From Escherichia coli (GTDB lineage Bacteria; Pseudomonadota; Gammaproteobacteria; Enterobacterales; Enterobacteriaceae): DNA of 64,000 nucleotides. The stretch lies in the NCBI RefSeq assembly GCF_013315695.1, contig NZ_CP054353.1. One strand, 5' to 3'. The notes under the pieces were generated by a model. The model was not told the DNA's origin. It worked only from the letters and a program-made list of their open reading frames with translations, and searched no databases. The position numbers and the translations under genes were made by a program. Shown in pieces: positions 446 to 60,519 of the stretch. Positions within the stretch are counted from its first letter, which is position 1. Each line of letters begins with the position of its first letter.

Positions 446-482
446 TTGATTACTGCCGGGGCTCCCGGCAGTATGAATAGCT

Positions 483-1409: not shown

Positions 1410-1498
1410 CTGTTTTCTTCATGAATGGATGCAATAAATCAATTTTATTTCTCAAACTGGAAGAAGCACAATAGAACCATCGATCATCTGGAGTCTTT

Positions 1499-27407: not shown

Positions 27408-28460
27408 TCACCCCCACTCCCGCATCCGCTGATGCAGCGTCAGTGACGGCTTCTCGGCAAACAGTTGCTGATAATCCGTAGCAAATTGCCCAAGATGCCA
27501 GAATCCCCACTGCATGGCGGCGTCTTTTACCGTCATACTTTGCGACCACGGGCTTATCAGTTCGCGGCGCACGGCGTTCAGGCGAATGCGTTTCAGCCAC
27601 GCGTTTGGGCCAATGCCTAAAATAGCGTGAAAAGCGTTTTGTAGCGTGCGGCGGCTGACATGTAGTTGATTACACAAGTCCAGCACCGTCACCGGTTCGG
27701 ACATGTTTTCCAGCACATATTCACGGGCGCGGGAAAGCAATCGACGGTAACTCTGATGACTGATGCTTTCCGCCGTCACCATTGGCTGCGCTTCTTCCAG
27801 CATCGCCCCCATCGCCATTAGCAAGTTATCCCCCAGCACTTTTCGCACTGCAGGCTGATGGAGATTTTCCGGGTTCTCGCAAAACGTCGCCAGCGCCTGT
27901 TGGACAAAGCCCCACAGAGCGGCTTTATGCTGCTCTTTCACTTCCAGCGCCGACTGGCTACGCAGCATATGTAATACCCGATCCGGATTATGCAAAAAGT
28001 TAGCCTGACGAGTGATGACATCTTCAGAAAGCACTACGCCCAGGATCGTGTAATCGTCCGGCGTACTTAATTCAAACTCGGTTCCACCCGGGCGCGTCGC
28101 AATTTCTGCGCTTCCCAGACATTGCGAACCGATAAATCCCTGCTCACCGCGCGTCGCCGGAATGCCAAACCAGAACGAGTTCGGCCAGACCAGGCACGAC
28201 TGACGCAGCGCCAGACCGGTGTATTCACGAAAAACCTGAATATCATCGAGTAGAATTTCCGTAAATTCACCATGAAACTTGCCCGGATGCAGCTGATCGT
28301 AAATCTGCTGCCAGGCGGTAATCGTCAAAGCATGTTCATAGACATCCGTTGTCTGTCGTTGATGAACATTATCCACTTCGACCTTCGGCGTGAGCTTCAG
28401 GTTTTCGGGTAAGGGTTCATGATAAAGATGGTGCAAATTGGCTGTACGGGTCTTTTTCAT
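27408..28460 (-). CDS. eutR: AraC-family transcriptional activator of the eut operon
   Basis: 350-aa ORF with C-terminal AraC HTH; last gene of eut operon. Confidence 0.93.
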
Positions 28461-28505
28461 GATGTTAATGCCGGGTGTTGTAGGACACCCGGCACCTCCG
28501 ACAGG

Positions 28506-29012
28506 TTAATGGGGCTTGAGACGGTAACGACTACTGCGTTTACGTAACGTCCCGGCAGAAAAGAGCTGTTCGAGCGCATTTCTGGCTTTTTCCAGCGGCC
28601 AGCCAAAGTGGGCAGCCACTTCTCCTGCCGTCATTCCCTGACGTACTGATGTTAACAGCGCCAACAACTCGTCAGCAGATTCCGCGTCGATAACTGGCGC
28701 GTCGGGTTCCTTTACGGGTTGCTTCGGCTGGCGGTTAAAGCCAGTAACCAGCCACTGGGTGTCATCGTCTGGCCGACCGATCTCCTTACGGCTGATGACA
28801 CGCCCGGTACGCATCGCGGCAGCACAACCTGCGTCCAGCGCCGCACGACACGCCGCCAGATCGCCTTCCACCACCAGCGTTAGGCGACCAGGGTCAAGCA
28901 CTTCATGGCTGAGCAGACGAACGTTAGCTGCTTTGAGCATGGCATCCGCTGCATCTATCGCGGCGACCATGCCGTCAACTTCCAGCAATCCCAGTGCATT
29001 GATCATCGGCAA
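28506..29012 (-). CDS. eutK: Microcompartment shell protein EutK (BMC domain + C-terminal HTH)
   Basis: 168-aa ORF with N-terminal BMC domain (INALGLLEVDGMVAAIDAADAMLKAANV). Confidence 0.9.
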   Translation of the reverse strand: MPMINALGLLEVDGMVAAIDAADAMLKAANVRLLSHEVLDPGRLTLVVEGDLAACRAALDAGCAAAMRTGRVISRKEIGRPDDDTQWLVTGFNRQPKQPVKEPDAPVIDAESADELLALLTSVRQGMTAGEVAAHFGWPLEKARNALEQLFSAGTLRKRSSRYRLKPH

Positions 29013-29018
29013 CCTCCG

Positions 29019-29678
29019 TTACGCACGCTGGATTGGATTACGCGCGATTTCCAGCACTGCATCGGTAAAGGCGTTACAGGCTGCTTTACACGCGGCCTGG
29101 CTACCGGTTAAAAATGCTGCCGAGTAGTTGGTTTCAGACGGTGGCGGGACATAGGTCACCAGCTGCACGTCGGCAGATTTCAACGCTGCATCAATGCCGT
29201 AGGTCGCTTCCAGCGGCGGTGCCACCAGATACGCCATCGGATCGCCAAGCGTGATCCCGGCGGTTGATGAGAGATAAGAACCGGTACGCGAAACGACATG
29301 TGCCAGGAAGGCTGTATTTTCTGCGTCATTAGCCCACTGGAAAGCAGCGCCATTTTCAATATGCGCAACCATCGCATCCAGACCAGCACGCACTTCCGCC
29401 GGGTTTGGCCCACCCAGCATAATCAGCACTTCACCGGCAGTCGGTGACGGGCCGTGTGCGGCTCCCGCATACAGCGAGCGGCCATACACCACTTCCACCA
29501 TCGCCTGCTTGGTCGCTTCGTCAGCCGCAATGTAGGTGACGTCATCTGAATCAGCAGAAATCAGCCCGAGGCTACGAATATGCGGCGGCAATTTCAGTTC
29601 ACGTGCAAATTCGGCGTTAACGGAGGCAATCACCCGCATGGCGGTTACCGACGGTCGAATCAAATCTAAAGCTGGCAT
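29019..29678 (-). CDS. eutL: Microcompartment shell protein EutL (tandem-BMC)
   Basis: 219-aa ORF. Confidence 0.92.
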
Positions 29679-29687
29679 GATGCCTCC

Positions 29688-30575
29688 TTATCGGGTCATG
29701 TTGATGCCGGATGCTTTCTGCTCCAGCATACGTTTCGCCAAATCCACAATGACGGCTGCGGCTTCAACCGGCGGCGTGCCGCCCTGGTGAATGTTAGAGA
29801 TACAGGTGCGATCGGCCTCAACGGTGGTCGCCATACGCGGCGAGTAAACGGCGTAGCAGGAGAGGCTTTCTGACTGCCCCAACCCCGGACGTTCGCCCAC
29901 CAGCAGGATCACCACTTTCGCACCGAGGATCTCACCGATCTGATCTTCAATCTTCACGCGACCATAACGAACAAAGAATGGCGTACCAACTTTCAGCCCG
30001 GCCTGTTTCAGGCCCGCCATCAGCGGCGGCAGGATCTCTTCGTAGTTCACGGTGATCGCATCAGTTGACAGGCCATCAGAAATAACGACCTGCACGTCCG
30101 GATTAGCAACACACTGTGCTTTCAGCGCTTCAACAGCTTCTGCACACAGGCGGCGGCCCATATCCGGGCGAGTCAGGTAGAGATTTTTGTCGCTGATTTC
30201 GGAGCGGACTTCCAGCAAGCCCTGCGCTTTCACCCACTCTTCCGGCACTTCTTTCAGTACAGTATCTTTCGAACGAGAGTGATCGGCCAGGAAACGCAGC
30301 AACGCCTGGGTACGCGGACGCGGACCGGCACGACCGGTACAAACGCGGGCCACGGTGCTGCGACGCAGTTCTGTTAATACGTCTGCGCGATGCGGGTTTT
30401 CAACACCAATCCACGCTTTTGCTTCCGCAGAGCCTAAATCCAGCGCGCAGCTTTCCGAGGTCACCGGTGCCGCACAGGTGGTGGTGGCGCACTTTGCTTC
30501 TGACGGCGCGGGGGCCGCTTGTCCCATTGACGCCATCACGCTGCGTACAATTTCTTCAATCTGTTTTTGATCCAT
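29688..30575 (-). CDS. eutC: Ethanolamine ammonia-lyase small subunit
   Basis: 295-aa ORF; follows eutB. Confidence 0.95.
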
Positions 30576-30595
30576 GATGTGTTATCTCCGCGTCA

Positions 30596-31957
30596 TCAGA
30601 AGAACAGTGACGGATCGCCCGCCCGTTTGGTCAGGCGACCGTTTGCCATAATGCCCATGCTTTCCAGCCAGCGTTCAAACTCCGGTGACGGGCGCAGGTT
30701 GAGTAACTGACGCACAGTGGCAGTGTCGTGGAATGCGGTGGTCTGATAGTTGAGCATGATGTCATCACCCAGCGGCATCCCCATGATGTAGTTGCAGCCT
30801 GCGGTGGCGAGCAGGATCATCAGGTTTTCGTTGAGGTTCTGGTCAGCGTCAGCGTGGTTGGTGTAGCAGCAGTCACAGCCCATAGAGATGCCGCTCAGCT
30901 TGCCCATAAAGTGATCTTCTAAGCCCGCGCGGATAATCTGGCGGTCGTTGTAGAGATACTCCGGCCCAATAAAACCGACCACGGTGTTGACGATAAACGG
31001 ATCGTAATGACGCGCCAGCCCATAGTTACGCGCTTCCATCGTCACCTGGTCAGCGCCGAAGTTAGCGCCAGCAGACAGCGCCGAACCTTGTCCGGTTTCG
31101 AAGTAGAGGCAGTTTTCCCCAGCGATACGGTTAAACTCTGCACCCACTGCGCGCGCTTCGTCGAGCATCGCCAGCTCCACGCCAAACTCTTTCAGCCCTT
31201 TTTCGCTGCCGCAAATACTCTGGAAAATCAGCCCGCCCGGTGCGCCGCGACGAATCGCTTCGATCTGGGTGGTGACGTGCGCCAGTACGCAGCCCTGAGT
31301 TGGGATGTTGAATTTGTCGATCACGCCATAGATGGTATCCAACACGCGGCTTAAGTTTTCCACGTCGTCCGTCACCGGGTTAACGCCGATCACCGCATCG
31401 CCCACCCCGAAGGAAAGCCCTTCGTAGATTTGCGCGGCGATACTTTGCACATCGTCACGGGTATCGTTTGGCTGCAAGCGGGCGCTAAAGGTGCCCGGAA
31501 TACCGATGGTGGTATTGGCCTTTTTGATCACCGGCATTTTCTTCGCGCCGTAGATCAGGTCCGCGTTAGAACTGATCTTCGCCACCGCCGCGACCACTTC
31601 CGAGGTCAGCCCTTTGCGGGTAAAGGCAATGTCGTCAACGCTGGTTTCGTCGCTCAGGACGTATTCACGCAGTTCGCTGATGCTCCAGTTTTTAATCTGG
31701 TTGTAGGCCGTTTCGTTAACATCGTCCTGAATCAGCCGCGTCACGCAGTCATCTTCATAGGCAATCACCGGATTATTGCGGATGTCCGCTACGGTCATTT
31801 CCGACAACACCTGCTTTGCCGCCACGCGCTCCTGTGAACTTGCCGCTGCAACGCCTGCCAGCACATCCCCCGAACGCAGTTCGTTGGCTTTAGCCAGCAC
31901 CTCTTTTACATCCTTAAACTGATATACATTGCCGAACAATGTGGTCTTTAGTTTCAT
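30596..31957 (-). CDS. eutB: Ethanolamine ammonia-lyase large subunit
   Basis: 453-aa ORF. Confidence 0.96.
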   Translation of the reverse strand: MKLKTTLFGNVYQFKDVKEVLAKANELRSGDVLAGVAAASSQERVAAKQVLSEMTVADIRNNPVIAYEDDCVTRLIQDDVNETAYNQIKNWSISELREYVLSDETSVDDIAFTRKGLTSEVVAAVAKISSNADLIYGAKKMPVIKKANTTIGIPGTFSARLQPNDTRDDVQSIAAQIYEGLSFGVGDAVIGVNPVTDDVENLSRVLDTIYGVIDKFNIPTQGCVLAHVTTQIEAIRRGAPGGLIFQSICGSEKGLKEFGVELAMLDEARAVGAEFNRIAGENCLYFETGQGSALSAGANFGADQVTMEARNYGLARHYDPFIVNTVVGFIGPEYLYNDRQIIRAGLEDHFMGKLSGISMGCDCCYTNHADADQNLNENLMILLATAGCNYIMGMPLGDDIMLNYQTTAFHDTATVRQLLNLRPSPEFERWLESMGIMANGRLTKRAGDPSLFF

Positions 31958-31968
31958 AAGTCGTTCCC

Positions 31969-33372
31969 TCAGGAAGGAAATGCGAGTGATTTCACCGTCA
32001 CCGGCACAACCGATCCGCCAAAAAGAGGCGTACCAATGTCGATATAGTCCCCCGCGCGGACAATCACTTCGTCAATGACTGCCAACGGGAGTTGTTGTAG
32101 CTGTGGGCGCAACAACATGCCCAGAGCTTTACCAAAGTCCTGCCCGGCCACCACCAGCAGGGGATGCGGATTCGGAAAACGCGCGACGAAATCGACCAAC
32201 GCGTTGATGACCGTCAGTACCGCGGCGTAACGCACAGGCAGCGAGGCGGGAAGCGCCAGCACGTACGCGTCAGTTTTAGGATCAAGATCCAGCTGAATCA
32301 GCGCCTGTTGCCAGGCACTCACCAGATCCGTTTCATCAATCGGGATCGCCACCGGCAAATTGCGCAGCGGCAGTTGTACGCCCTCCAGCCAGATTGTGCT
32401 GCCAGAGAGCGAAAGGGTATGAGCTCCCGCGCCAATCACCGTGGCGCGCACGGTTTGCGCCGGAAACTGCACGTTCATCTCACGCAGGCGCGGATGGTCA
32501 TGCAGCGCCGTTGCCAGAAGCGGGCCAATATCGGCAAAACAGAACGGGTCGGCGGGCTGGTGGCGATAACATTCGCCAACGCCGCCAGAAAGCGTAATGA
32601 TTTCGGGCGTAACACCTACGGGCAGCAAACCGGTTTGCATCAATGCCTGCGCGAGCGGCGAAAGCGTTCCGTCAATCACTTCGACAATCAGCTCTGCCAT
32701 CCGCCGGGTAACCTGCACCAGCTGCGCGCCAGTCAGCGAACGGGCGTCGGTGCCTGCACCGAAGCACTCATCCACAATCATCTGCCCCGGTTTATGAGCG
32801 TAAACCACGCGCCCCTGGCTGTCGGTTTCCAGCAGGCGACCGCCGACATTGAGGCAGGCGGTGCCGCTGATTTTTCCGGCATCGAACAGGGCGTAGTTCG
32901 CGGTGCCACCGCCGATGTCGATATTCAGTACCCGACACAGCCGTTGTTCAGAAAGGGTTTGCGCCCCGGCACCGTGACCGGCGATCACGGATTCGAGATG
33001 CGGCCCGGCGCTGGCGACGACAAAATCGCCCAGCGACTGGGAGAGCGTCATCACCGCCGGGCGAGCGTTGCGGGTTTTCGCGCTTTCACCGGTGATAATG
33101 ATGGCACCAGAATCAACGCTTTCCGGCGCAATGCCCGCAGCCTGATATTGCTCGAGGATTAAGGTTTTCAGTTCCGCTTCTTTTAAACCACCCTGTTTAT
33201 CGACAGGGGTAAAGAACACCGGGCTTTGCCAGCTAATTTCGCGTTTGATGAATTCGTAGCGCGGCACCTGCGACACCGCCGCACGGTTAACCAGCTCCAG
33301 GTGGGAGAAGATCACCTGGGTGGTGGTGGTGCCGATATCGATACCGACGCTCAGTAGCTGGCGAGTGTTCAC
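31969..33372 (-). CDS. eutA: Ethanolamine ammonia-lyase reactivase
   Basis: 467-aa ORF; only 11 bp separate its stop from the eutB start (no prophage between them). Confidence 0.95.
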   Translation of the reverse strand: MNTRQLLSVGIDIGTTTTQVIFSHLELVNRAAVSQVPRYEFIKREISWQSPVFFTPVDKQGGLKEAELKTLILEQYQAAGIAPESVDSGAIIITGESAKTRNARPAVMTLSQSLGDFVVASAGPHLESVIAGHGAGAQTLSEQRLCRVLNIDIGGGTANYALFDAGKISGTACLNVGGRLLETDSQGRVVYAHKPGQMIVDECFGAGTDARSLTGAQLVQVTRRMAELIVEVIDGTLSPLAQALMQTGLLPVGVTPEIITLSGGVGECYRHQPADPFCFADIGPLLATALHDHPRLREMNVQFPAQTVRATVIGAGAHTLSLSGSTIWLEGVQLPLRNLPVAIPIDETDLVSAWQQALIQLDLDPKTDAYVLALPASLPVRYAAVLTVINALVDFVARFPNPHPLLVVAGQDFGKALGMLLRPQLQQLPLAVIDEVIVRAGDYIDIGTPLFGGSVVPVTVKSLAFPS

Positions 33373-34595
33373 GATTGCGCCTCCGCTTCGGTTTTAGCCG
33401 TGGTCGCGTCTTCTTTTGGCACCAGCATCATCGCCACGCCAATCGCCGTTACGCCGCCGATCAACTTGCCGACAATCATCGGGAAGATCATGGCGTTCAT
33501 GTTGGCAGCGGCGAAGCCTAAGTGGTCGCCCAGGGCGAAAGCAGCGGAAACGGCGAAGGCACAGTTGATGACTTTGCCGCGGGTATCCATCTGCTTCATC
33601 ATGCCAAACATCGGGATGTTGTTGGCAAGCGTTGCCACCATGCCGGCTGCCGCGATGTTGTTCATATTCAGCACCTTACCGACGCTCATCAGCGGTTTTT
33701 CAAACCAGCGAGTCAGCAGCAGCACCATCGGATACGCCCCTAACAGAACGCAGGAGATCGAGCCGATAACTTCAATGGCGCGCATCACTTCACCGGGTTT
33801 ATCGCCAGGGGCCATAAAGATAGGATCAAGGCCCGGGATCAGTTCCCAGCCAAGGAGGAATTTCACTACCGCAGCGGCAAGACCGAGGGTGATCAATGCA
33901 ACGAGGAATTTGGCGAAGATCTGGAAGCCGTTGATCATTTTTTCCGGGATGAATTTCAGCCCCAGCGCCACCAGCACCGCAACGATAAGTACCGGGATCA
34001 TGTTCATCAGGATCAGCGCAAAGGTGAATTCCACTGGCTGACCGTTGATCTGCACACCGGAGTACATAGCCACCAGACCACCGGCAATACAGCCAATCGG
34101 AATGGTCACAATGCCCGCCAGCACGCCGAGCGCCAGATAACGACGGTCAGAAGGTTCGATAATGCCGAGCGCCACCGGAATGGAAAACACAATCGTTGGC
34201 CCCATCATCGACCCGAGAATTAATCCAGAGTATAGCCACGCTGCTACGTCGCCGCCCGCCAACTCTTTGGCGAGGAAGAAGCCGCCCATATCGCACGCCA
34301 GCAGTGTTCCGGCGAACATTGACGGGTTTGCGCCGAGCATTTCGTAAACCGGGATAATCACCGGTCCGAGTACGTGGGCCAGAACAGGTGCCAGCGCGGT
34401 CATACCAACCATCGCCAGGCCCAAAGCGCCCATTGCCATAAAGCCTTCTTCGAACTGACCGCCGGATCCTTCGATACTTTTACCGAACTTACCGAGGAAA
34501 CGAGCAGAACCGCCGAACTGCGACAGGATCCTGTCTACGGCAGCTATCAGCATAAAGAACATCATGATGTACATGATGATTTCGTTAATTCCCAT
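33369..34595 (-). CDS. eutH: Ethanolamine permease
   Basis: 408-aa multi-TM ORF; 4-bp overlap with eutA. Confidence 0.95.
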   Translation of the reverse strand: MGINEIIMYIMMFFMLIAAVDRILSQFGGSARFLGKFGKSIEGSGGQFEEGFMAMGALGLAMVGMTALAPVLAHVLGPVIIPVYEMLGANPSMFAGTLLACDMGGFFLAKELAGGDVAAWLYSGLILGSMMGPTIVFSIPVALGIIEPSDRRYLALGVLAGIVTIPIGCIAGGLVAMYSGVQINGQPVEFTFALILMNMIPVLIVAVLVALGLKFIPEKMINGFQIFAKFLVALITLGLAAAVVKFLLGWELIPGLDPIFMAPGDKPGEVMRAIEVIGSISCVLLGAYPMVLLLTRWFEKPLMSVGKVLNMNNIAAAGMVATLANNIPMFGMMKQMDTRGKVINCAFAVSAAFALGDHLGFAAANMNAMIFPMIVGKLIGGVTAIGVAMMLVPKEDATTAKTEAEAQS

Positions 34596-34626
34596 CGCCT
34601 TTACTCCCTGTTAGTTGTTATTTATT

Positions 34627-34709
34627 GGCGGATGCGGCGTGAACGTCTTATCCGCCCTACATGTGCAATCCCGAAGGCCGGATAAGACGCGGCAAGCGTC
34701 GCATCCGGC
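34627..34709. repeat. BIME (two inverted REP elements) between eutH and eutG
   Basis: GGCGGATGCGGCGTGAACGTCTTATCCGCCCTAC ... GGCCGGATAAGACGCGGCAAGCGTCGCATCCGGC, canonical REP palindromes in opposite orientation. Confidence 0.6.
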
Positions 34710-34711
34710 AT

Positions 34712-35899
34712 TTATTGCGCCGCTGCGTACAGACCGACAATCTGCTCCAGGCTGGCGGTACGCGGGTTACTGCGCAGACAAACATCTTCCAGCGCGGCCT
34801 GCGCCCATGCACCGTAATGCGCAGATGTCGCACCAATATCGCCCAGTCGTTTACCAATCCCGACTTCCGCAATCAGCTCACTTACCGCGTTAATAGCGTC
34901 ACGATCGTCGGATTTTTTAGTTCTCAGCGCCCGGCCAATCTGACTAAACCGATCACGACAAACCATCCGGTTAAATTCCATCACCGTTGGCAGCAACATA
35001 GCGTTCGCCAGACCGTGCGGAATATGCAGCGCCGCCCCTGGCTGATGCGCCATCGCGTGGCACAACCCAAGTCCGGCACTGGAAAACGCCATTCCCGCCA
35101 TACATGAAGCCAGCAACATGCTCTCGCGGGCGGCAAGGTCGTGACCGTAGCCCACCGCTTTCGGCAGCGATTTGCCAATCATCGCAATGGCACCAATCGC
35201 CAGACTGTCGGTAAACGGTGTGGCGTTCAGCGCGCTGTACGCTTCAATGGCATGGGTTAACGCATCAATGCCAGTCATCGCCGTGACATGCGACGGCACA
35301 CCTTCGGTCAATGCGGCGTCGAGGATCGCCACATCCGGCATCAGCGAGGCATGGGCTAACACCTGTTTGCGCCCGCTTACCGCATCGATAATCACCGTCA
35401 CGTTAGTCGTTTCAGAGCCGGTTCCGGCGGTCGTTGGAATGGCAATCAACGGCAGGCGCGGTTGCAGAACGCTGGTTTCTGACATTTCTGCCAGCGTGCT
35501 ATCCGGGTTCGTCACCAGCAACGCCACGGCTTTCGCCGCATCCAGCACCGAGCCGCCGCCAAACGCGATCACCCCGTCACAACCTGATTCACGCAACTGC
35601 GCCACGGCTGCACACACGTCGGTGATGCATGGTTCGCCCACCGGACATGGCCAGAGCGTCATGGCGATACCTTTAACGGCCAGGCTACGCGTCAGCCCGG
35701 CGGTCATCCCGGTCTGATGCAAAAAGCTGTCTGCCATCACGAACAGATGTTTCAGCCCACGCGTTTGCGCTTGCTGCCCACAACTGCTCACCGCGCCCGG
35801 ACCGCAAAGCGTCACCGGTGGAACGCTAAATGTTTTTACCCGTTGCAGATTCAGGGTATCGAACGCCTGAAAGAGCGCGGTCTGCAATTCATTTTGCAT
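34712..35899 (-). CDS. eutG: Iron-containing alcohol dehydrogenase EutG
   Basis: 395-aa ORF. Confidence 0.95.
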   Translation of the reverse strand: MQNELQTALFQAFDTLNLQRVKTFSVPPVTLCGPGAVSSCGQQAQTRGLKHLFVMADSFLHQTGMTAGLTRSLAVKGIAMTLWPCPVGEPCITDVCAAVAQLRESGCDGVIAFGGGSVLDAAKAVALLVTNPDSTLAEMSETSVLQPRLPLIAIPTTAGTGSETTNVTVIIDAVSGRKQVLAHASLMPDVAILDAALTEGVPSHVTAMTGIDALTHAIEAYSALNATPFTDSLAIGAIAMIGKSLPKAVGYGHDLAARESMLLASCMAGMAFSSAGLGLCHAMAHQPGAALHIPHGLANAMLLPTVMEFNRMVCRDRFSQIGRALRTKKSDDRDAINAVSELIAEVGIGKRLGDIGATSAHYGAWAQAALEDVCLRSNPRTASLEQIVGLYAAAQ

Positions 35900-36725
35900 A
35901 TAGCCCCTCCGCTTTCTCTCGCCCGCTACTGGCGATCGCCAGCGGGGTCATAAACAAACTGTGCTGCGGTAAATGCACCTGTAACGCCGGGAATTGTTTG
36001 CGAAACAGTTCCGCCACGCCCGGTTGCATACAAGAGCCGCCCGCCAGCCATAAATCCGTAATGCCCTGCCCTTCAATATGCCGGGCGACGATGTCCGCCA
36101 TTTTTTCGTACACCGGTTTCACCGCGGGCCAAATCTCTTCACCGTGACCGCGCTTGTACTGCTCTGCCTCTTCCAGCGAAATACGACGATTTCCGGCGAG
36201 AGTCAGAGAGATGTGATGTCCGCCGGTCGCTTCATCCGCCGAGTACGTCACCTTGCCCTTTTTCACGATGGCAATACCAGTAGTGCCACCGCCGATATCC
36301 ACTACACCGGCGTTGTCCAGTTGCAGCAGATCCGCGACTGCGGTTGGCTCATCCAGTACATGGCTCACTTCCAGTCCGGCAGATTCCAGCACGTTGATGG
36401 AAATACGCGGGTCCGTACCTGGAGGAAAAGAGGTCGCCGCATGGCTAAAACGGCGACCGAATTGCTGCTCGAGGGTGTCGAGATGGCGACGAACAATGGT
36501 GACCGCACCGAAGAAATCCCAGACGATGCCGTCGCGGACCACATCGGCCCAGTCGAGGCATACCGCCACCGGCAGACCGTCGCGGTCGACAACCATCGAC
36601 ACCACATCGCAGGTGCCCAGATCCACCCCCAGCCACAGCGGAGATTCCGTCGCGGCGGGCGTCTGGTTACACAGCGTTGCCGCCGTTTGCAGACGTGGGG
36701 TGAGCCATTGTTCATCGTGCGCCAT
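35889..36725 (-). CDS. eutJ: Hsp70/actin-fold chaperone-like protein EutJ
   Basis: 278-aa ORF; overlaps eutG start. Confidence 0.94.
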   Translation of the reverse strand: MAHDEQWLTPRLQTAATLCNQTPAATESPLWLGVDLGTCDVVSMVVDRDGLPVAVCLDWADVVRDGIVWDFFGAVTIVRRHLDTLEQQFGRRFSHAATSFPPGTDPRISINVLESAGLEVSHVLDEPTAVADLLQLDNAGVVDIGGGTTGIAIVKKGKVTYSADEATGGHHISLTLAGNRRISLEEAEQYKRGHGEEIWPAVKPVYEKMADIVARHIEGQGITDLWLAGGSCMQPGVAELFRKQFPALQVHLPQHSLFMTPLAIASSGREKAEGLYAK

Positions 36726-36735
36726 CGGTTACTCC

Positions 36736-38139
36736 TTAAACAATGCGAAACGCATCGACTAATACACAGCGACGCAGACGGACAAACGTCCGCGCGCTGG
36801 TTACCCCTTCACCGGTTGGCGTGGTGATGGTCATGGTGGTCCAGCCTTCCCCGCCCAGCCCCAGCCCGGCAATGCACGGTCCGTTCTTAACGAAAATGCT
36901 GGTATCAATGGCATTCGCCATCTGGTTCATGTTCTCGATATTGCGCGAGTGCATTGCCGCCGTGTGGTGGCAACCGCCTTCCAGTTTCACCGCCAGCGCA
37001 ATGGCATCCGCCACGTTGGCGACGCGCACGACGGGCAGCACCGGCATCATCAGTTCAGTCACAGCAAACGGATGTTCTGCGGTGGTTTCTACAAACAGCA
37101 GTCGCGTTTGTTCCGGAACTTTAAGGCCGATTGCCGCCGCGATTTTCGCCGCATCGCGACCAACCCAGTCACGGCTGACGGTGCCTTTTCCGCGCTCGTC
37201 GATATTTTTCAGCAACACCGGTTGCAGCTGCTGCGCCTGCTCTGCGGTCAGTTTCACCGCGTGCTGGCCTTCCATCAGACGCATCAGTTCATCGGCTACG
37301 CTATCCACAACAATCAGTACCTTTTCGTCGGCACAAATGATGTTGTTATCGAAAGACGCGCCTTTGACGATGGACTGAGCAGCACGGGCGAGGTCGGCGG
37401 TTTCATCCACCACTACCGGCGGGTTGCCAGCGCCTGCGGCAATCAGACGTTTATTGGTGTGTTTACGCGCCGCTTCTACTACCGCTTCGCCGCCGGTCAC
37501 CACCAGCAGGCCGATGCCCGGAAACTTGAACAAACGTTGAGCGGTTTCGATATCCGGATTTGCCACAGTAACCAGTAAGTTTTCCGGCCCGCCTGCGGCA
37601 ACAATCGCCTGGTTGAGCAGCGTGATCGCCCGCTGGGAGACTTTTTTCGCCGCCGGATGCGGGGCAAAAATGACGCTGTTGCCCGCGGCAATCAGGCTGA
37701 TGGCGTTGTTAATTACGGTTGCCGCCGGGTTAGTGGAAGGCGTCACCGAAGCCACTACGCCCCAGGGCGCGTTTTCAATTAAAGTCAGGCCGTTGTCACC
37801 GGTCAGCACTTGCGGAGAGAGGCACTCAACGCCTGGTGTGCCGCGCGCCTGAGCGACGTTTTTGGCAAATTTATCTTCAACGCGCCCCATGCCGGTTTCA
37901 CTGACGGCAAGTTCCGCTAAATCTCTGGCGTGTTTTTCGCCTGCTTCACGAATGGCAGCAATGGCTAACTGGCGCATTGCCACGCTTTTTAACCCTTGCT
38001 GGGCGACTTTGGCTGCCGCAACGGCGTCATCCAGGGACGCGAAAACGCCCATCTCATGAACGGCGGCGGGCGGCGTGTCACTGCTTTGCATTTTCAGCAG
38101 TACCGCTTTCACCACCTGTTCAATATCCTGTTGATTCAT
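36736..38139 (-). CDS. eutE: CoA-acylating acetaldehyde dehydrogenase EutE
   Basis: 467-aa aldehyde dehydrogenase-family ORF. Confidence 0.95.
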   Translation of the reverse strand: MNQQDIEQVVKAVLLKMQSSDTPPAAVHEMGVFASLDDAVAAAKVAQQGLKSVAMRQLAIAAIREAGEKHARDLAELAVSETGMGRVEDKFAKNVAQARGTPGVECLSPQVLTGDNGLTLIENAPWGVVASVTPSTNPAATVINNAISLIAAGNSVIFAPHPAAKKVSQRAITLLNQAIVAAGGPENLLVTVANPDIETAQRLFKFPGIGLLVVTGGEAVVEAARKHTNKRLIAAGAGNPPVVVDETADLARAAQSIVKGASFDNNIICADEKVLIVVDSVADELMRLMEGQHAVKLTAEQAQQLQPVLLKNIDERGKGTVSRDWVGRDAAKIAAAIGLKVPEQTRLLFVETTAEHPFAVTELMMPVLPVVRVANVADAIALAVKLEGGCHHTAAMHSRNIENMNQMANAIDTSIFVKNGPCIAGLGLGGEGWTTMTITTPTGEGVTSARTFVRLRRCVLVDAFRIV

Positions 38140-38150
38140 GATGTTCTGCC

Positions 38151-38438
38151 TTATTTGTGGAAAATGACCTGACCGCCAGACACCACCTCATCGACGATGC
38201 CAATCACGCACAGATCGACCGGTGACGTTTCGCTTTTATGCGCCTGGCGGGCGGAACTGCCACTCACCAGCAACACCCACTCCCCGGTTCCCGCGCCAAT
38301 ATTGTCGATGGCGACGGCGCATTGCCCGTCAGGATTACCTTGTGGATCAATCATTTCCACCATCAGCAATTTGTCATGCGCCAGTCCGTGATGGCGTACG
38401 GTACAAACAATTTGTCCAGTGACGACTGCCAGTTTCAT
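38151..38438 (-). CDS. eutN: Microcompartment vertex protein EutN
   Basis: 95-aa ORF MKLAVVTGQIVCTVRHHGL... Confidence 0.93.
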   Translation of the reverse strand: MKLAVVTGQIVCTVRHHGLAHDKLLMVEMIDPQGNPDGQCAVAIDNIGAGTGEWVLLVSGSSARQAHKSETSPVDLCVIGIVDEVVSGGQVIFHK

Positions 38439-38544
38439 ACCCGCCTCCGTGGCGTATTTCAGGTAAAAGCTCCCCCTACCCTCCGCAGAAGGTAAAATGA
38501 TAAAGGAGAGAGCGTGACGCCCGAATCGACGTCACACAGGGTGA

Positions 38545-38838
38545 TTACAGGTTGCTGCTATCGCCTTTCAGGCCGATCGGGAACACTTCTTCCAGGTCGC
38601 CGTGCGGACGCGGGATAACGTGTACAGATACCAGCTCGCCGATACGCTGTGCCGCTGCGGCACCTGCATCGGTCGCGGCTTTACAGGCTGCAACATCACC
38701 ACGAACCATGGCAGTACACAGGCCGCCGCCAATCTGCTTAACACCAACCAGCTTGACGCGCGCAGCTTTAACCATCGCGTCAGAAGCCTCAATCAGTGCA
38801 ACCAGGCCCCGGGTTTCGATCATTCCTAATGCTTCCAT
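38545..38838 (-). CDS. eutM: Major microcompartment shell protein EutM (BMC-H)
   Basis: 97-aa product from ATG at 38838 ([26 protein letters not shown]...) with GAGGAAA RBS; ORF track start at 38880 is an extension. Confidence 0.93.
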
Positions 38839-38876
38839 TGTGCTTTCCTCTTTATCAGGGTCCAGAACGGGACCGT

Positions 38877-39893
38877 TCATTCAACCAGTGTTTGTAAACT
38901 GCTTTCGCGGTTCACTTCTGTCTGACGCGGCACAGCTGCCACCAGCGCCAGCTCGATAATTTCCTGCACGCTACAACCACGAGAGAGATCGTGCATCGGC
39001 GCGGCAAGTCCTTGTATCAATGGCCCGACGGCACGATATCCGCCGAGTCGTTGTGCGATTTTGTAGCCAATATTTCCGGCTTCCAGCGACGGAAAAACCA
39101 TCACATTGGCCTTGCCCTGTAGCGGGCTGGCAGGCGCTTTTTGCGCCGCCACTTCCGGCACGAAGGCGGCGTCAAACTGCAACTCGCCATCGACTACCAG
39201 CTTTGGTGCGCGCTCACGGACGATTTCTGTCGCCTGCTGGACGTTGGCAACGCAGGGGTGACGGGCACTACCATTGCTGGAAAACGACAGCATCGCCACG
39301 CGCGGTTCTTCTCCGGTGATGGCCTGCCAGGTTTCGGCGCTGGCAAGCGCGATATCCGCCAACTGCGCCGCCGTCGGCTGTGGCACCACGCTGCAATCGG
39401 CAAAACCCAACGCCGGACCGCTGTACTGTGGCAGCATCAGGAAAATGGATGAGAGCGTTTTACAGCCTGGCTGCAAGCCGATAATGCGTAATCCGGCACG
39501 CAGCACATTCGCCGTGGAAGAGAGGTTGCCCGCGATACAGACATCCGCTTTACCGGCGCTGACCATTGCTGCGGCGAACATCAGCGGGTCGGTAAGTTTT
39601 TCCAGCGCATCCGGCGGCGTTTTTTCGCCCGCGCGGGCCAGCCAGCGATGAGCAAATTCTTCCCGCATTGCGAGGTTGCCATGCGGATCAATCACCTGTA
39701 GCCCGTCCATCGCCACGCCATGACTGAGCGCAAACTGACGAAGTTCAAACGGATTGGCGACCAGAATGGGCGTTGCCAGACCTTGTTGATGTAAATATTG
39801 CGCAGCTTTCAGCACACGTTGATCTAACGCATCCGGAAAAACTACTCTGGCGGGCGCTCGCAACGCCAGTTCACGACAACGTTCAATAATCAT
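38877..39893 (-). CDS. eutD: Phosphotransacetylase EutD
   Basis: 338-aa ORF. Confidence 0.95.
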
Positions 39894-40693
39894 TGCGTTT
39901 CCCCCAGTCGTTGTTGGATCTGCTTCACCGTTAGCGGCTGCTTCGTTACGCTCAGGATCATCATCACGTAGACCGTGCTGGAAAGGCGGTTCAGCGCCTG
40001 CAAAATGTCCGGGCGTAATACTTCAAAGCTGCGGGTGATAAAGACCTGCGCCGCTACGGTTTCGGTTTCCCGCACTTTGGTGCGTAGCAGATTTAGCAAC
40101 GCCGCATCGCGCCCGTGGCTGGCTTCCGGCACCAGATGATCGTGGTCGAGATAACGCAGCGGCTGGTGAGAAAGCCGATGCAGATCTTCGTCAGAAAGCC
40201 CGACAATCGCTTGGCAGGCCAGCGGTTCCCCCAGCGCATCGGCACGCATAATGTTGCCAAGACGCGAACGGATATCCGCCAGCCACGGCTGCCACGGTTC
40301 CGCCAGTTCAATTTGCAGCCACACTGCCAGCGCAATGGTGCTGTCGAGAACAGCGCGAAAAGCCAGGCGCGGATCGCTTTTGGCAACCATTTTTTCCGCC
40401 GACAGGTGAGTCAGCGTGTCCGGCTTTTTCGCCACCGGCTGGCGGCACAGTTCGCAGCACGCCTGCGGATGTTCATCACTACTGGTCAGCCCGTGAACGG
40501 GCTGCGGCTGCTGCTGTTCATCGTCAACAAACAGGCGGCCCTGCTCGTCAATAAACTTGATGCGCAGATGGCGGCTTTCCAGTAACTCCCGGGCAGAGGG
40601 CGTCAGGCGACTGTCCGCAGGGAGATGGATCTCTGCGCCTTCGCTAAGCGTATGATTCGCTCTTAGCCATGCTTCGGTGATGAAATCTTTCAT
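39890..40693 (-). CDS. eutT: Cob(I)alamin adenosyltransferase EutT
   Basis: 267-aa ORF; 4-bp overlaps with eutD and eutQ. Confidence 0.93.
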
Positions 40694-41391
40694 AGGGATT
40701 GCCAGTTAGCCGGCCAGGCGACATACAGGAATTTCACACTGGATGTCGTACCAAATTCGATGCTGGAGCCTTTCGGGATAAACATCACATCGCCTGCTTT
40801 GGCGATCATGGTTTCGCCTTCGTGGCGAACGTGCAGTTCCCCTTCCAGTACCATATCGATTTCGTCATAGTTGAGGGTCCACGGGAAGAAGGCGTTCTCC
40901 CACTGCATAAAACCGGCGGCCATGCTGCTGCCGTCGTCTCCGGTGACCAGATCCGTTAATCCGACGCAGTGTGGCTGTGCGCCGTCGAAACGACCAAACT
41001 TGACGCTGCTGCCATCAATCACTTTGATGCCGCCTTTGCCGGTCACCGATTTGAAGCTCGGCTGCATTGCACCCTGCTCCAGTGACTGTTTTTCCTTCAT
41101 CACTTTTTCCATCAGCTGCGCGACCAGGCTTTCGGTAAACTGGCCTTCCGGTAGCTGGGCGATGATGGTTTCGCGGATGCGCTGGCTTTCGGTTTTATCG
41201 GCTGGCACGCTGGCGGGAACGGACGTCGTTACCGCAGTCGATTCATCACATTCGGTGATGGTAAAACCCAACAGATCAGCCACTTCACGAGCTTCCGGGG
41301 TAATAATGCTGGCGCGCAGAACCACGGACATTGCCAGTTCGCCGCGCGCGTGTGCTTCACGAATATCATTCGCTGTGATGAGTTTTTTCAC
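40690..41391 (-). CDS. eutQ: Cupin-fold protein EutQ
   Basis: 233-aa ORF. Confidence 0.92.
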   Translation of the reverse strand: MKKLITANDIREAHARGELAMSVVLRASIITPEAREVADLLGFTITECDESTAVTTSVPASVPADKTESQRIRETIIAQLPEGQFTESLVAQLMEKVMKEKQSLEQGAMQPSFKSVTGKGGIKVIDGSSVKFGRFDGAQPHCVGLTDLVTGDDGSSMAAGFMQWENAFFPWTLNYDEIDMVLEGELHVRHEGETMIAKAGDVMFIPKGSSIEFGTTSSVKFLYVAWPANWQSL

Positions 41392-41845
41392 CTGCTTCCT
41401 CCTGTTTGGTGAGAGATGCCAGATAATCCACCAGTTGCTGCACGCTTTGCGGGTCGTGGCTGTTTAGCTCGAAAATCGGCTCTTCGAAGCCCGTCTCAAG
41501 CAATAACTTTCGCGTTGCGGCGACGTCAGCATCTGGCATGTCCGTTTTACTGATGACGGCGATTTGCCGTTTGCTGACGCCAATATCCAGCAACCCGGCA
41601 GGCAACCGACTTTCCGGGTCATTCGCGCCGTGGACATAGATCAGCATGTCCACATCCTGTAGCGTGGTAATTAAGGCGTGATACCAGCGGGGATGGCTAA
41701 AATATTCACCCGGCGTATCAATATCGCCCTTATCATTAAATTCCACGGCCTGTGTTTTTCTTGCGAGGGTATAATTCCCCTGCAACGCATTAAATAACGT
41801 TGTTTTTCCTGCCCCGACGGTACCCACAAACGCAATTCGTTTCAT
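41366..41845 (-). CDS. eutP: P-loop NTPase EutP
   Basis: 159-aa ORF with Walker A GTVGAGKTT; its GAGG RBS is retained 3' of the IS1 insertion point. Confidence 0.92.
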   Translation of the reverse strand: MKRIAFVGTVGAGKTTLFNALQGNYTLARKTQAVEFNDKGDIDTPGEYFSHPRWYHALITTLQDVDMLIYVHGANDPESRLPAGLLDIGVSKRQIAVISKTDMPDADVAATRKLLLETGFEEPIFELNSHDPQSVQQLVDYLASLTKQEEAGEKTHHSE

Positions 41846-41874
41846 GAATGCCTCGTATTAACTTTTGGTCATTT

Positions 41875-41883
41875 CACAAAGCG
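41875..41883. repeat. IS1 target-site duplication, left copy (CACAAAGCG)
   Basis: Identical 9-mer directly abuts both ends of the IS1 element. Confidence 0.85.
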
Positions 41884-41898
41884 GGTAATGACTCCAAC

Positions 41899-42402
41899 TT
41901 ATTGATAGTGTTTTATGTTCAGATAATGCCCGATGACTTTGTCATGCAGCTCCACCGATTTTGAGAACGACAGCGACTTCCGTCCCAGCCGTGCCAGGTG
42001 CTGCCTCAGATTCAGGTTATGCCGCTCAATTCGCTGCGTATATCGCTTGCTGATTACGTGCAGCTTTCCCTTCAGGCGGGATTCATACAGCGGCCAGCCA
42101 TCCGTCATCCATATCACCACGTCAAAGGGTGACAGCAGGCTCATAAGACGCCCCAGCGTCGCCATAGTGCGTTCACCGAATACGTGCGCAACAACCGTCT
42201 TCCGGAGCCTGTCATACGCGTAAAACAGCCAGCGCTGGCGCGATTTAGCCCCGACATAGCCCCACTGTTCGTCCATTTCCGCGCAGACGATGACGTCACT
42301 GCCCGGCTGTATGCGCGAGGTTACCGACTGCGGCCTGAGTTTTTTAAGTGACGTAAAATCGTGTTGAGGCCAACGCCCATAATGCGGGCTGTTGCCCGGC
42401 AT
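41899..42402 (-). CDS. insB: IS1 InsB (transposase C-terminal frame, expressed as InsAB' by -1 frameshift)
   Basis: 167-aa ORF matching IS1 InsB (…[21 protein letters not shown]…). Confidence 0.93.
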
Positions 42403-42596
42403 CCAACGCCATTCATGGCCATATCAATGATTTTCTGGTGCGTACCGGGTTGAGAAGCGGTGTAAGTGAACTGCAGTTGCCATGTTTTACGGCAGTGAGA
42501 GCAGAGATAGCGCTGATGTCCGGCGGTGCTTTTGCCGTTACGCACCACCCCGTCAGTAGCTGAACAGGAGGGACAGCTGATAGAAACAGAAGCCAC
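42321..42596 (-). CDS. insA: IS1 InsA (transposition inhibitor / N-terminal transposase frame)
   Basis: 91-aa [26 protein letters not shown]…; the A6C slippery run lies in the insA/insB overlap. Confidence 0.93.
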
Positions 42597-42646
42597 TGGA
42601 GCACCTCAAAAACACCATCATACACTAAATCAGTAAGTTGGCAGCA

Positions 42647-42970
42647 TCACCCACAAAGCGTATAATTTAATAAGCGTCCTAAACCACTGACGGTTTGTGA
42701 TAACGCTTCTTCTACTGCGCCCACCGAGCCATAAATCACCAGCGCGCCGCTAAAACGGTCGAGAAAACCGATATGCACATCGGCGGCTTTCAACGCTAAA
42801 TCACCGGCGATCATCGCCGTTTCTCCGGGAGTTAGCGTCATAATGCCAATTGCGCCCGCATCCGGAACGCCGATTTTCTTCGCCAGTTCCTCGCCGGGAT
42901 GCGCGATGAGATGCGCCAGTGTGACCTGTTTACCGGGCACAAATTCCTGAATGATGCGTTCTTTATCCAT
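42647..42970 (-). CDS. eutS: Microcompartment shell protein EutS with C-terminus rewritten by the IS1 insertion
   Basis: Product from ATG at 42970 ([21 protein letters not shown]…, permuted BMC domain); reading frame enters the IS1 inverted repeat and stops at 42647-42649. Confidence 0.88.
42652..42660. repeat. IS1 target-site duplication, right copy (CACAAAGCG)
   Basis: Identical 9-mer directly abuts both ends of the IS1 element. Confidence 0.85.
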
Positions 42971-43335
42971 GAGTCGCCGCCTGTGAAAAACTTTCGTGTA
43001 TCGTGACAATTTTTCGTCAGAGTAAATAACAAAATTCGGCAAGCGCGTTTAAAAGGTGAGGTAGATCACGAACAATGGGGAAAATACTTTATGCAAAGAA
43101 AATCACATACATCACATGAATACAAACAGGAGTCGATAAGTTTTATTTATCATATGTTACCCACCCCATTTTTAATGGTTCTTCGCATAACCCTATGTAG
43201 CATTTATAATAATTATCAGAATACATATCCCATGAACTGTTGTATTCTGAAAATATTATTATACTCACCCCATTTAAGGTACAACATAAACGATGAGTTT
43301 ATTCAGGGCATAAAAGAAATGGATGGATACCTGTA
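42971..43335. promoter_or_regulatory. Divergent AT-rich control region: eut operon promoter (upstream of eutS) and promoter of the glycosyltransferase gene
   Basis: 365-bp visibly AT-rich intergenic region between divergent eutS and the GT gene; the main eut promoter is known to lie upstream of eutS; individual sites not resolved. Confidence 0.4.
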
Positions 43336-44406
43336 ATGAAAATTCACTACCTTGTCACCACTCTCGAAACGGGAGGCGCTGAATTTGCGATTCCTGATAT
43401 TGTGACTACTCTACAAGATCTTGGTCATGAGGTGAAAATTTATGTATGTGAACCCCGAGATATGGGCGCGGCACCGCGTCTGAAAGCGGCCGGTTTATCC
43501 TGGTGTTTATTATCAAATCGGCGGCGTTCTGTTCCAGTGCTTGTCGGTGCTTATCTGGCAAAAATCATTTACGACAAACCCGATCTCATCTGGACTTCGT
43601 TAAGTTGGGGGACGCGTATTGGACAATGGGGCGGCCGACTTATGGGCATTCCGGTTATCAGTTTTAAACATAGCGCCAGCGTAAAACCAGCAACCTGGCG
43701 TATGCGCAGCATGTCACGTTTATGGATTGGCGATTCTGCAACCGTAACTCAATACCTGCATGAAACCATGCGGATCCCGAAGCAACAAGTGATGTGCTGG
43801 CCTTTTTTTCAGGCTAATCCGCAAGCTGCTCAAGCGAAAAAGTGGGACGGGGTATCAGTTTTACAATTAGGCACCGTTGGTCGCCTGCATGAAGTTAAAA
43901 ATTACGCAGGATTAATTACTGCACTCGCTTCGTTTGTCGATAAAAACCCGCAATTGCGCTCGCGAATCCGACTAACCCTTCTCGGTGAGGGAGCCGAACA
44001 AGAGGTTTTGAAAAAGACCATAACACAACACGCCATGGAGGATGTAGTTTGTTTAGCGGGGTTTTCTGCGGATATCGAAAATTTTCTTGCCGGATTACAT
44101 GTCTATATCCAAACTTCCCGCTACGAAGGGATGTGCCTCGCCGCACACGAAGCCATGAATGCAGGGCTTGCGATCATTACGCCCCCTGTAGGTGAACTTA
44201 AAGAATCGGTAATTGATGGTCATACCGGCTATATACTTAATGGCGAACTAACTCCAGCACTGGAGGAAGTACTTAACCGTATTTTCAATGAACCCACAGA
44301 ATTACAACACTATGGGCAAAATGCGCGTCAGTATGTATTACAGAAATTCAGCCATGAAAATTTTGTCCAGTCTGCAATCAACATTGTTAATAGACTTATT
44401 CACTGA
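43336..44406 (+). CDS. Glycosyltransferase, GT-B fold, family-4-like (retaining), orphan accessory gene
   Basis: 356-aa ORF; N-terminal Gly-rich motif (TLETGGAEFAIPDIVTTLQDLGHEV) and C-terminal EX7E motif (YEGMCLAAHEAMNAGLAIITPPVGE) typical of GT4 enzymes; lower G+C than neighbours. Confidence 0.75.
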   Translation: MKIHYLVTTLETGGAEFAIPDIVTTLQDLGHEVKIYVCEPRDMGAAPRLKAAGLSWCLLSNRRRSVPVLVGAYLAKIIYDKPDLIWTSLSWGTRIGQWGGRLMGIPVISFKHSASVKPATWRMRSMSRLWIGDSATVTQYLHETMRIPKQQVMCWPFFQANPQAAQAKKWDGVSVLQLGTVGRLHEVKNYAGLITALASFVDKNPQLRSRIRLTLLGEGAEQEVLKKTITQHAMEDVVCLAGFSADIENFLAGLHVYIQTSRYEGMCLAAHEAMNAGLAIITPPVGELKESVIDGHTGYILNGELTPALEEVLNRIFNEPTELQHYGQNARQYVLQKFSHENFVQSAINIVNRLIH

Positions 44407-44409
44407 ATA

Positions 44410-44445
44410 AGGCAGTAAAAAGGCATTTTTTGGTACTGCCTTTTC
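44410..44445 (+). terminator. Terminator-like hairpin after the glycosyltransferase gene
   Basis: GGCAGTA…TACTGCC stem with inner A5/T5 pairing, followed by TTTTC. Confidence 0.4.
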
Positions 44446-44954
44446 ACCGAATACTATGGTTATCGTACTTGTCGTGGCGATGGGAAAAGTCGTTACAGTT
44501 TTCATTCCCTTGCATAGCCGTGACGCCCCCTTTTCACACACAAAGAAAATGGTGGATGTTTTATACTCCTCCACCACCAAAGGCAGTCAAGATGGATAAG
44601 TTAATGCTCGCCCATGCCCCCAATTTATGGGCCATGGAAAAACGTCTTGCAAACAGCTGTGTACGGGAATAATAGCAGTGCGGGTATGAGCAAGACATTA
44701 TTTTATCATGACGGGCAAAATTGCAGCCGGACCTAGGGCGGTGCATTGCAGATGCTGAAACTGGACCCGCTATGTTTATTATCTCCAGAATTTAATGCGT
44801 CTGGAAGTACCTACAACTGCTGCGCCTTTTATTGATGGCATGCATACGCTTTCTGGTGTTGGCGACGTTACATTCATGATGCCTGGCTACAACTTAAGGG
44901 CTCGCCTCAGCAATTCTGAGTGGATGTACAGCGGCGTATACAGAAGTGGGTCAG

Positions 44955-59782: not shown

Positions 59783-60144
59783 AACAACCTCTCTTATAAT
59801 TATGGGTATTCTACGGAAACAATATACCGTGGTGAAGCTAATTTACTCGATTGCTGCGATGACTACCTCCGGGGGACAAACCTTATGTAAATACTATGGT
59901 CCTGCGGTGATAATTTGTATGTGATACACAGCAACATTTCGAGATATTCATACGGCATCTAATACTGATTTAATTCTGGCTAAAATACAGACAGATAACA
60001 AGATGAATATTTTTAATGTTTACGTTAAAAATGTTTAATATTATTTAATAGTTGTTAATTTGAATACTTCGATAATGTTATATTTCCTGATAATCATTTG
60101 CAGGCAAAATGTTTTCACCCTTAAATGAGTATTTATTCTCATAA

Positions 60145-60519
<375 letters not shown>

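Follow-up and report, generated by a model that had tools for sequence, protein, structure and literature searches.

A canonical IS1 in the 3' end of eutS in an Escherichia coli clone, with predicted polarity on the eut operon

The 64,000-nucleotide stretch of Escherichia coli DNA analysed here, called the window throughout, carries an insertion sequence near the start of the eut operon, and the locus raises the questions of what the element is and exactly where it lies, whether its arrival was a single event or one of many, and what it does to the expression of the genes beyond it. Overall, the best explanation, to which we give a probability of about 0.8, is a canonical IS1 transposition into the 3' end of eutS, with polarity on the downstream genes and certain side effects that are inferred.

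The IS1 element and its junctions with eutS

The eut operon of the window comprises 17 genes on the minus strand at positions 27408-42970, in the order eutS-P-Q-T-D(pta)-M-N-E-J-G-H-A-B-C-L-K-R. The region is 100% identical to that of E. coli MSB1_4I (NZ_LR898874.1; rectal swab, Australia), and the annotation of the identical record was used to delimit the operon (window coordinates are those of locus L001 plus 21499). None of the 17 genes carries a pseudogene flag in that record, and the CPZ-55 prophage is absent from between eutA and eutB in its annotation. The gene order is the canonical EUT1-type one: the operon lies between hemF and maeB, starts with eutS, and ends with eutR. An earlier note on this DNA had placed an IS1 after the first gene of the 17-gene operon, and the annotation, in which the rest of the operon is intact, agrees. 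The main eut promoter, P1, lies upstream of eutS and is switched on by EutR in the presence of ethanolamine and adenosylcobalamin; eutR has in addition its own weak constitutive promoter, P2 (PMC5821096), which corresponds to the internal eutR promoter that the note had invoked.

The element is a complete IS1 of 768 bp at positions 41884-42651 (minus strand), its left inverted repeat (IRL) being the high-coordinate end that adjoins eutS and its right inverted repeat (IRR) adjoining eutP; the direction of insAB' is thus that of the eut operon, both being on the minus strand. IRR occupies 41884-41906 (GGTAATGACTCCAACTTATTGAT) and IRL 42629-42651 (reverse complement, GGTGATGCTGCCAACTTACTGAT), and the two are identical at 18 of 23 positions. 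A length of ~768 bp, imperfect 23-bp ends starting GGT(G/A)ATG, and a target-site duplication of 8-9 bp are features of IS1. The insA gene (42321-42596, minus strand; 91 aa from a GTG start) specifies the repressor and the N-terminal part of the transposase, and the insB' reading frame lies at 41899-42402 on the same strand. The A6C slippery motif AAAAAAC for the programmed -1 frameshift is present at 42339-42345 (minus strand; IS positions 307-313), its role and the insA/insB' architecture of IS1 being as described (PMC12428005). The predicted frameshift product, InsAB', is 232 aa long without an internal stop, and it matches NF033558, the NCBIfam IS1 transposase equivalog, at 245 bits against a cut-off of 100. 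A consensus scan gave a promoter-like site (9/12 matches) at 42617-42644 on the minus strand, overlapping IRL, where the weak insA promoter of IS1 sits, and this agrees with the position described for PIS1 (PMC12428005).

Sequence reading, translation, and the NF033558 match therefore uphold the earlier description of a complete 768-bp IS1 with these ends, with insA and insB on the minus strand and with intact ORFs. The RefSeq annotation of NZ_LR898874.1 names the element an IS1A-family transposase between eutP and a 107-aa eutS. It is thus a canonical IS1, already annotated and of a known kind, and involves no new element type or mechanism. No second IS1 copy was found in the 64-kb window, and a composite transposon was rejected on that ground. 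This copy is apparently functional and transposition-competent, to judge from its intact ORFs and ends, and secondary rearrangements in members of the clone are consistent with activity. With the IS1A/IS1E-type elements of K-12 it shares the 768-bp length, 23-bp imperfect ends, A6C site, 232-aa InsAB', 9-bp duplication, and AT-rich targets (PMC12428005); there is no structural difference, and it is just another copy at another site. The IS1 load does differ, at least 40 matching places being found in the host genome (NZ_LR898874.1) against the six named K-12 copies, IS1A-F (PMC12428005).

Both flanks of the element carry the same 9-mer, CACAAAGCG, the left copy at 41875-41883 on the eutP side and the right copy at 42652-42660 within eutS codons; the chance of such identity for one given pair is 4^-9, or ~4e-6. 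The perfect 9-bp duplication reported before is thus real, but the placement of the insertion between eutS and eutP was wrong: the IS1 lies within eutS, 16 nt upstream of its native stop codon. The resulting eutS (42647-42970, minus strand; annotated as WP_001571747.1) encodes 107 aa ending in NYTLCG, whereas native EutS has 111 aa and ends in NYTLCEMTKS; the last five residues, EMTKS, are therefore replaced by a single G. The stop codon, TGA at 42647-42649, is supplied by the IS1 end, 3-5 nt into IRL. Over residues 1-106 the protein does not differ from the crystallised E. coli EutS (PDB 3I96), and it matches positions 1-106 of the 111 in model NF012012; the change to EutS is limited to its short C-terminal tail. 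On the other side, eutP (41366-41845, minus strand) is intact in the ORF list and annotation and keeps its ribosome-binding region, the 38 bp that separate its ATG from the IS1 being unaltered.

Empty site, lineage, and prevalence of the insertion

Upstream of eutS lies a 1,870-bp island (43082-44951), delimited by annotation and by comparison with the usual spacer, that has a GC content of 0.44 against 0.53 for the window. From a point 111 bp upstream of the eutS ATG, it takes the place of 127 bp in the 292-bp spacer normally found between maeB and eutS, and it contains a gene for a family-4 glycosyltransferase (43336-44406, plus strand) recognized by annotation and a profile match. Only 6 of 5,426 complete genomes have the island at a coverage of at least 80%.

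Removing the IS and one repeat copy in silico yielded a contiguous empty site, as the earlier note had anticipated: the canonical 111-aa eutS was restored, and the resulting 774-bp sequence aligned without interruption, at 100% identity, to that of TCM3e1, a strain free of the IS. Isolate AF14, from a UK blood culture, carries the same island and protein alleles and an intact 111-aa eutS, and is devoid of IS1; against the window stripped of the IS and one repeat it shows 2 mismatches over 7,035 bp. In isolate AF3 the IS1 and the eutP-side junction are identical to those of the window (0 mismatches), and alignment showed the loss of the 532-bp segment corresponding to 42652-43183, which includes eutS together with the DNA upstream of it and ~100 bp of island sequence. 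The AF3 deletion is flush with IRL and leaves no duplication, and there are 0 mismatches on either side. One lineage consequently displays a series from empty site to insertion to insertion with an adjacent deletion. The origin indicated by these alignments is an ordinary IS1 transposition, with its 9-bp duplication, into an AT-rich patch at the eutS 3' end in an ancestor of the clone with the rare glycosyltransferase island.

The exact 107-aa EutS protein occurs on 479 public contigs (1,052 index blocks). Both IS1 ends begin GGT(G/A)A, and either orientation at this position thus yields the same 107-aa EutS. Ten loci (L026-L035) were read among the contigs with this protein. Three of them, L028, L034, and L035, represent the event of the window, having the island, a 100% identical IS1 (as does AF3) in the same orientation, and the duplication; mismatches to the window numbered 0 in 6,324 bp for L028 and 1 for L034, and in L035 the IS and duplication are identical. 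The same event is found in GCA_000460675.1, GCA_900448625.1, and others, with 0-1 mismatch over 6.3 kb where comparable. In a further three loci (L026, L030, and L032) the eutS-IS1 side is as in the window and IRR is joined to prophage genes without a duplication, a rearrangement at the IS1 copy of the window. L031 and L033 lack the island and contain opposite-orientation IS1 variants (99.6% and 98.8% identity, respectively) at the same 9-bp target, with the duplication present; by their sequences, these are independent insertions. L027 has an internally deleted IS1 of 204 bp, again with the duplication. Finally, L029 has an inverted IS1 variant of 93.4% identity with the same eutS-side junction, the other end of which is joined to DNA aligning to window positions 1-1853 (yfeR/yfeH), ~42 kb away; this must be an inversion rather than a deletion because essential genes lie between the joined regions.

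The insertion is thus, on the evidence of these loci, a marker of a clone, recognizable by its 107-aa EutS, and it is not unique. A unique, very recent event was rejected, given the 479 contigs and the presence of the same event in GCA_000460675.1 and GCA_900448625.1. The earlier description of the transposition as relatively recent is correct on an evolutionary scale only, as the event is clone-wide and was followed by IS1-mediated deletion and rearrangement in some members. The 532-bp loss flush with IRL in AF3, the IRR-prophage joins in L026, L030, and L032, and the L029 join ~42 kb away all resemble classical IS1 adjacent deletion or IS-IS recombination. Such rearrangements could have come about by intramolecular transposition or through recombination with another IS1 copy present transiently, and the two are not distinguishable by sequence.

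Predicted consequences for transcription

Classical work on gal and lac established that IS1 is strongly polar in both orientations and that this polarity is Rho-dependent. In the window, transcripts from P1 would pass eutS and then enter IS1 in the sense direction. The insB frame would be translated only after a rare frameshift, which in IS1 has a frequency of ~2% (PMC12428005), leaving ~500 nt of largely untranslated RNA past insA. Most P1 transcripts are thus predicted to stop within IS1 by Rho-dependent polarity, aided by the untranslated insB region. The genes eutP-eutK would then remain uninduced, eutR would depend on the weak P2 only, and, with EutR at a basal level, the autoinduction loop would be broken. 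The predicted phenotype is an absence of ethanolamine use, with eutS itself still inducible; in other words, most of the eut operon is probably switched off by IS1 polarity, and the strain is probably Eut-negative. Independently of IS1, P1 might already have been altered in this lineage by the island, whose nearer edge is 111 bp from eutS on the upstream side.

Interruption of eut by a mobile element has a precedent in K-12. In BW25113, a prophage within eut abolishes ethanolamine use and its scarless removal restores it (PMC11334477), and eutS and eutR are ethanolamine-inducible in that strain, whereas eutB is not (PMC7617246). The element concerned, CPZ-55, lies between eutA and eutB in MG1655 and BW25113 and likewise splits the distal eut genes from P1 (PMC11334477, PMC7617246, PMC3045373). 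However, CPZ-55 consists of several kb of prophage DNA lying mid-operon with 6 genes downstream, whereas a 768-bp IS follows the first cistron here, 16 genes lie downstream, EutS is altered, and the effect is a predicted one. The caution of the earlier note that the phenotype is not predictable from sequence alone was judged fair. Ethanolamine catabolism has been linked to fitness in the gut and urinary tract (PMC5821096, PMC6652756), and the predicted loss of its inducible form in this strain and clone is useful in interpreting phenotypes and in building metabolic models; the 107-aa EutS provides a simple marker of the clone.

The insertion also appears to have created a strong-looking, near-consensus outward promoter. 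This hybrid promoter-like site at 42638-42666 (plus strand; 11/12 matches to the sigma-70 consensus by scan) consists of a -35 element, TTGGCA at 42638-42643 within IRL, a 17-nt spacer made up of 8 nt of the IS end and the 9-nt duplication, and a -10 element, TATAAT at 42661-42666 in eutS DNA. The spacer lies within the 16-18 nt expected of an IS1 hybrid promoter, and in the uninterrupted sequence no -35 match at that spacing was seen by eye. The IS1 inverted repeat is known to contain an outward -35 box that forms a hybrid promoter when a flanking -10 is well spaced (PMC8764528). The site reads antisense to eutS, in the direction of the glycosyltransferase gene ~660 nt away, and no terminator is predicted between the two; the putative promoter would thus transcribe antisense through eutS and P1 toward that gene. 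At afaA in E. coli ST131, an IS1 inverted-repeat -35 and a flanking -10 are likewise combined, and transcription there rises ~7 log2-fold (PMC8764528). In contrast, the promoter predicted here is antisense to the interrupted operon and directed toward an accessory glycosyltransferase. Hybrid promoters and adjacent deletions are both textbook behavior of IS1.

There may also be an effect on the element itself. Transcription entering IS1 from upstream raises both transposase transcription and transposition (PMC12428005), and P1 read-through into insAB' could therefore make this IS1 copy more active in the presence of ethanolamine.

Recurrence of IS1 at eutS and alternative explanations

IS1 was found between eutQ and maeB in the orientation of the window in 21 of 5,426 complete genomes, and in the opposite orientation in 8; the initial search detects only the former, and a flipped construct was needed for the latter. 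When the fetched loci were mapped, the independent insertions came to 16 in the same orientation and 4-5 in the inverted one, all with 8-9-bp duplications of their own; this set of complete genomes hence contains at least 20 independent events in the eutQ-maeB interval. About 10 fall in an 86-bp stretch at the 3' end of eutS (local GC 0.37) and nine are in the maeB-eutS spacer (GC 0.23-0.38), with eutP and eutQ having undergone a single event each. Two targets, AGCGACCTA and CGCTTCTTC, were each reused in identical form in both orientations. The eutS 3' end is, from these junctions, an IS1 hotspot at nucleotide resolution, the same 9 bp being reused independently. The insertion is not a singular event: IS1 has landed many times, independently, in its 9-bp target and in the AT-rich DNA around it. 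An orientation bias was considered as a sign of selection and rejected, as ~16 same-orientation versus 9 inverted events (including the inverted same-site loci) is not a robust difference.

As controls, the same IS1 was placed artificially at four other sites of the window and the identical genome search was performed. The maeB-tal spacer (minimum GC 0.39) was occupied in 0 genomes, eutN-eutM (minimum GC at least 0.45) in 1, yfeR-yfeH (0.32) in 4, and ypfM-yffB (0.22) in 8, whereas the real eutS site, with minima of 0.23 and 0.37 in its two AT-rich patches, gave 21. IS1 occupancy at the four control loci increases with AT-richness, though the genomes counted are not phylogenetically independent. 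Most of the recurrence in the eutS region can therefore be put down to the known preference of IS1 for AT-rich DNA. A hotspot beyond what AT-richness would produce was considered, as eutS has the highest count, but the AT trend covers most of it and selection is not claimed.

Two alternatives concern the window itself. A genome with at least 40 IS1-matching places has a repeat load able to confuse assemblers, and the IS1 at eutS might thus be an assembly artefact, a repeat copy that was misplaced. However, identical junctions and the duplication recur in assemblies made independently by different projects in different years (L028, L034, and L035, together with the eutP side of AF3), 479 contigs encode exactly the protein that the junction produces, and a perfect 9-bp duplication with an exact empty site in relatives is the signature of a real transposition. 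The matching junctions effectively refute an artefact, which we consider to have almost no chance of being correct. It is also conceivable that the insertion is largely non-polar, read-through from P1, the IS1 promoter, or a promoter at the IRR end sustaining eutP-eutR at a level sufficient for ethanolamine use, with the EutS C-terminus as the sole real change. IS1 runs in the direction of the operon, a scan of its eut-sense strand predicted no intrinsic terminator, the downstream eut genes are all intact with the eutP ribosome-binding region kept, and some transcription measurably exits IS1 into downstream reporters (PMC12428005); low-level expression beyond the element is possible. Against this, a consensus scan found no outward promoter-like site at the IRR/eutP junction, where the IRR hexamer TTGGAG meets, at the same spacing, AAATGA, which by eye is a poor -10. 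The strong polarity of IS1 in either orientation also argues against sustained expression. Several members of the clone have lost eutS and P1 or have had them detached, which would fit an operon that was already uninducible; such losses are consistent with an operon no longer under selection, but of course are not proof of it. Furthermore, an insertion within the E. coli eut operon abolishes ethanolamine use (PMC11334477). A non-polar insertion is consequently judged unlikely, and silencing of most of the operon by polarity is preferred.

The remaining alternative concerns why the hits at eutS persist. They may have been kept by selection rather than produced by target preference, either because loss of the costly eut microcompartment is favored in some host-associated lineages or because an outward promoter for the glycosyltransferase was selected. 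The occupancy at eutS (21 and 8 by orientation) exceeds that of all four controls, including the equally AT-rich ypfM-yffB with 8, and the clone in which the insertion has become fixed is well sampled. In a separate lineage, of at least 14 genomes, eutS and the promoter region are gone, and an IS1 lies between the maeB end and a eutP that has lost its 5' end. In addition, the 11/12 hybrid promoter faces the glycosyltransferase gene with no predicted terminator between them. Selection for loss of function should nevertheless scatter hits over the ~15-kb operon, and the eutN-eutM control gave only 1; instead, the hits cluster in two AT-rich patches (GC 0.23-0.38), with identical 9-bp targets reused in both orientations, which points to target preference, as does the climb of the control counts (0, 1, 4, and 8) with AT-richness. 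Selection of the promoter is further opposed by the inverted same-site events, which put the weaker IRR hexamer at that position such that the promoter is not a common feature, and by frameshifts in the glycosyltransferase gene in two members of the clone (L026 and L035). Selection as the cause of the recurrence is accordingly doubtful, and a joint reading, in which the hotspot hits were selected as a recurrent eut off-switch in host-associated E. coli and a strong outward promoter both yields antisense eutS RNA and drives the glycosyltransferase in the clone, is somewhat more doubtful still.

Canonical transposition with target preference thus remains the preferred explanation. A literature search found no published report of IS1 in eutS or elsewhere in the eut operon, and existing knowledge of IS1 or eut is unchanged by these results. 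The 5' end of eut, where IS1 has landed repeatedly, down to the same 9 bp, offers a small example of how target preference may lead to the recurrent inactivation of an operon.

Rearrangements at the ends of the inserted element

In clone members L026, L030, and L032 (position 4087/4088), the IRR of the same element, which in the window adjoins eutP, is instead joined to prophage genes, namely a tape-measure-like gene and an Sf6-type terminase. Such joins in several members of the clone imply an IS1-IS1 rearrangement by which eutS and the main operon promoter P1 are physically parted from the remaining genes of the operon. The sister isolate AF3 (L017, NZ_OZ547117.1) has lost 532 bp flush with IRL, corresponding to window positions 42652-43183 (junction at L017 4152/4153); the deletion removed eutS, the conserved 111 bp upstream of it, and about 100 bp of the adjacent island, and its endpoint clips another promoter-like site (43182-43210).

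The IRL/eutS junction itself contains a near-consensus candidate hybrid promoter on the plus strand (42638-42666), created by the IS1 insertion: IRL supplies TTGGCA, and TATAAT follows within eutS DNA after a spacer of 17 nt. It is directed antisense to eutS, towards the glycosyltransferase gene of the island.

The island between maeB and eutS

Where most genomes have 127 bp of maeB-eutS spacer, the window carries a lower-GC island of 1,870 bp (43082-44951; GC 0.44). The island starts 111 bp ahead of the eutS ATG, close enough that it might displace the EutR site or P1. It encodes a family-4 glycosyltransferase on the plus strand (43336-44406), for which no specific NCBIfam model was reached at cut-off, all scores falling below, and a small hypothetical ORF that adjoins maeB. 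Only 6 of the 5,426 complete E. coli genomes carry the island, and in L026 and L035 a frameshift breaks the glycosyltransferase gene in two.

Other IS1 insertions in and around eutS

The same eutS target is occupied in L027 (GCA_949281425.1; 3320-3523) by a 204-bp, internally deleted IS1 that retains about 103 nt of each end and the 9-bp duplication; this is either a genuine mini-IS1 or a collapse in short-read assembly. A divergent IS1 (93.4% identity) lies at this site in L029 (CP100005.1), where its far side adjoins the yfeR/yfeH region some 42 kb away (L029 4088-6324 versus window 1-1853). The join is probably an inversion, because the interval holds the essential genes ligA and zipA. Another lineage, represented by at least 14 complete genomes of multi-country origin (including L018, NZ_CP016546.1), has lost eutS and the entire promoter spacer; its IS1B lies between a eutP truncated at the 5' end and the extreme end of maeB.

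Transposase genes face eutS in eight of nine independent IS1 insertions in the maeB-eutS promoter spacer (L002, L003, L006-L008, L012, L013, L015, and L019), an orientation excess that does not hold up robustly when all the data are taken together. The ypfM-yffB spacer (window ~59,990-60,160; GC 0.22) is a further IS1-prone spot, occupied in eight complete genomes when insertions are counted in one orientation; EC488 and STO_Bone1B carry IS1 both there and near eutS.
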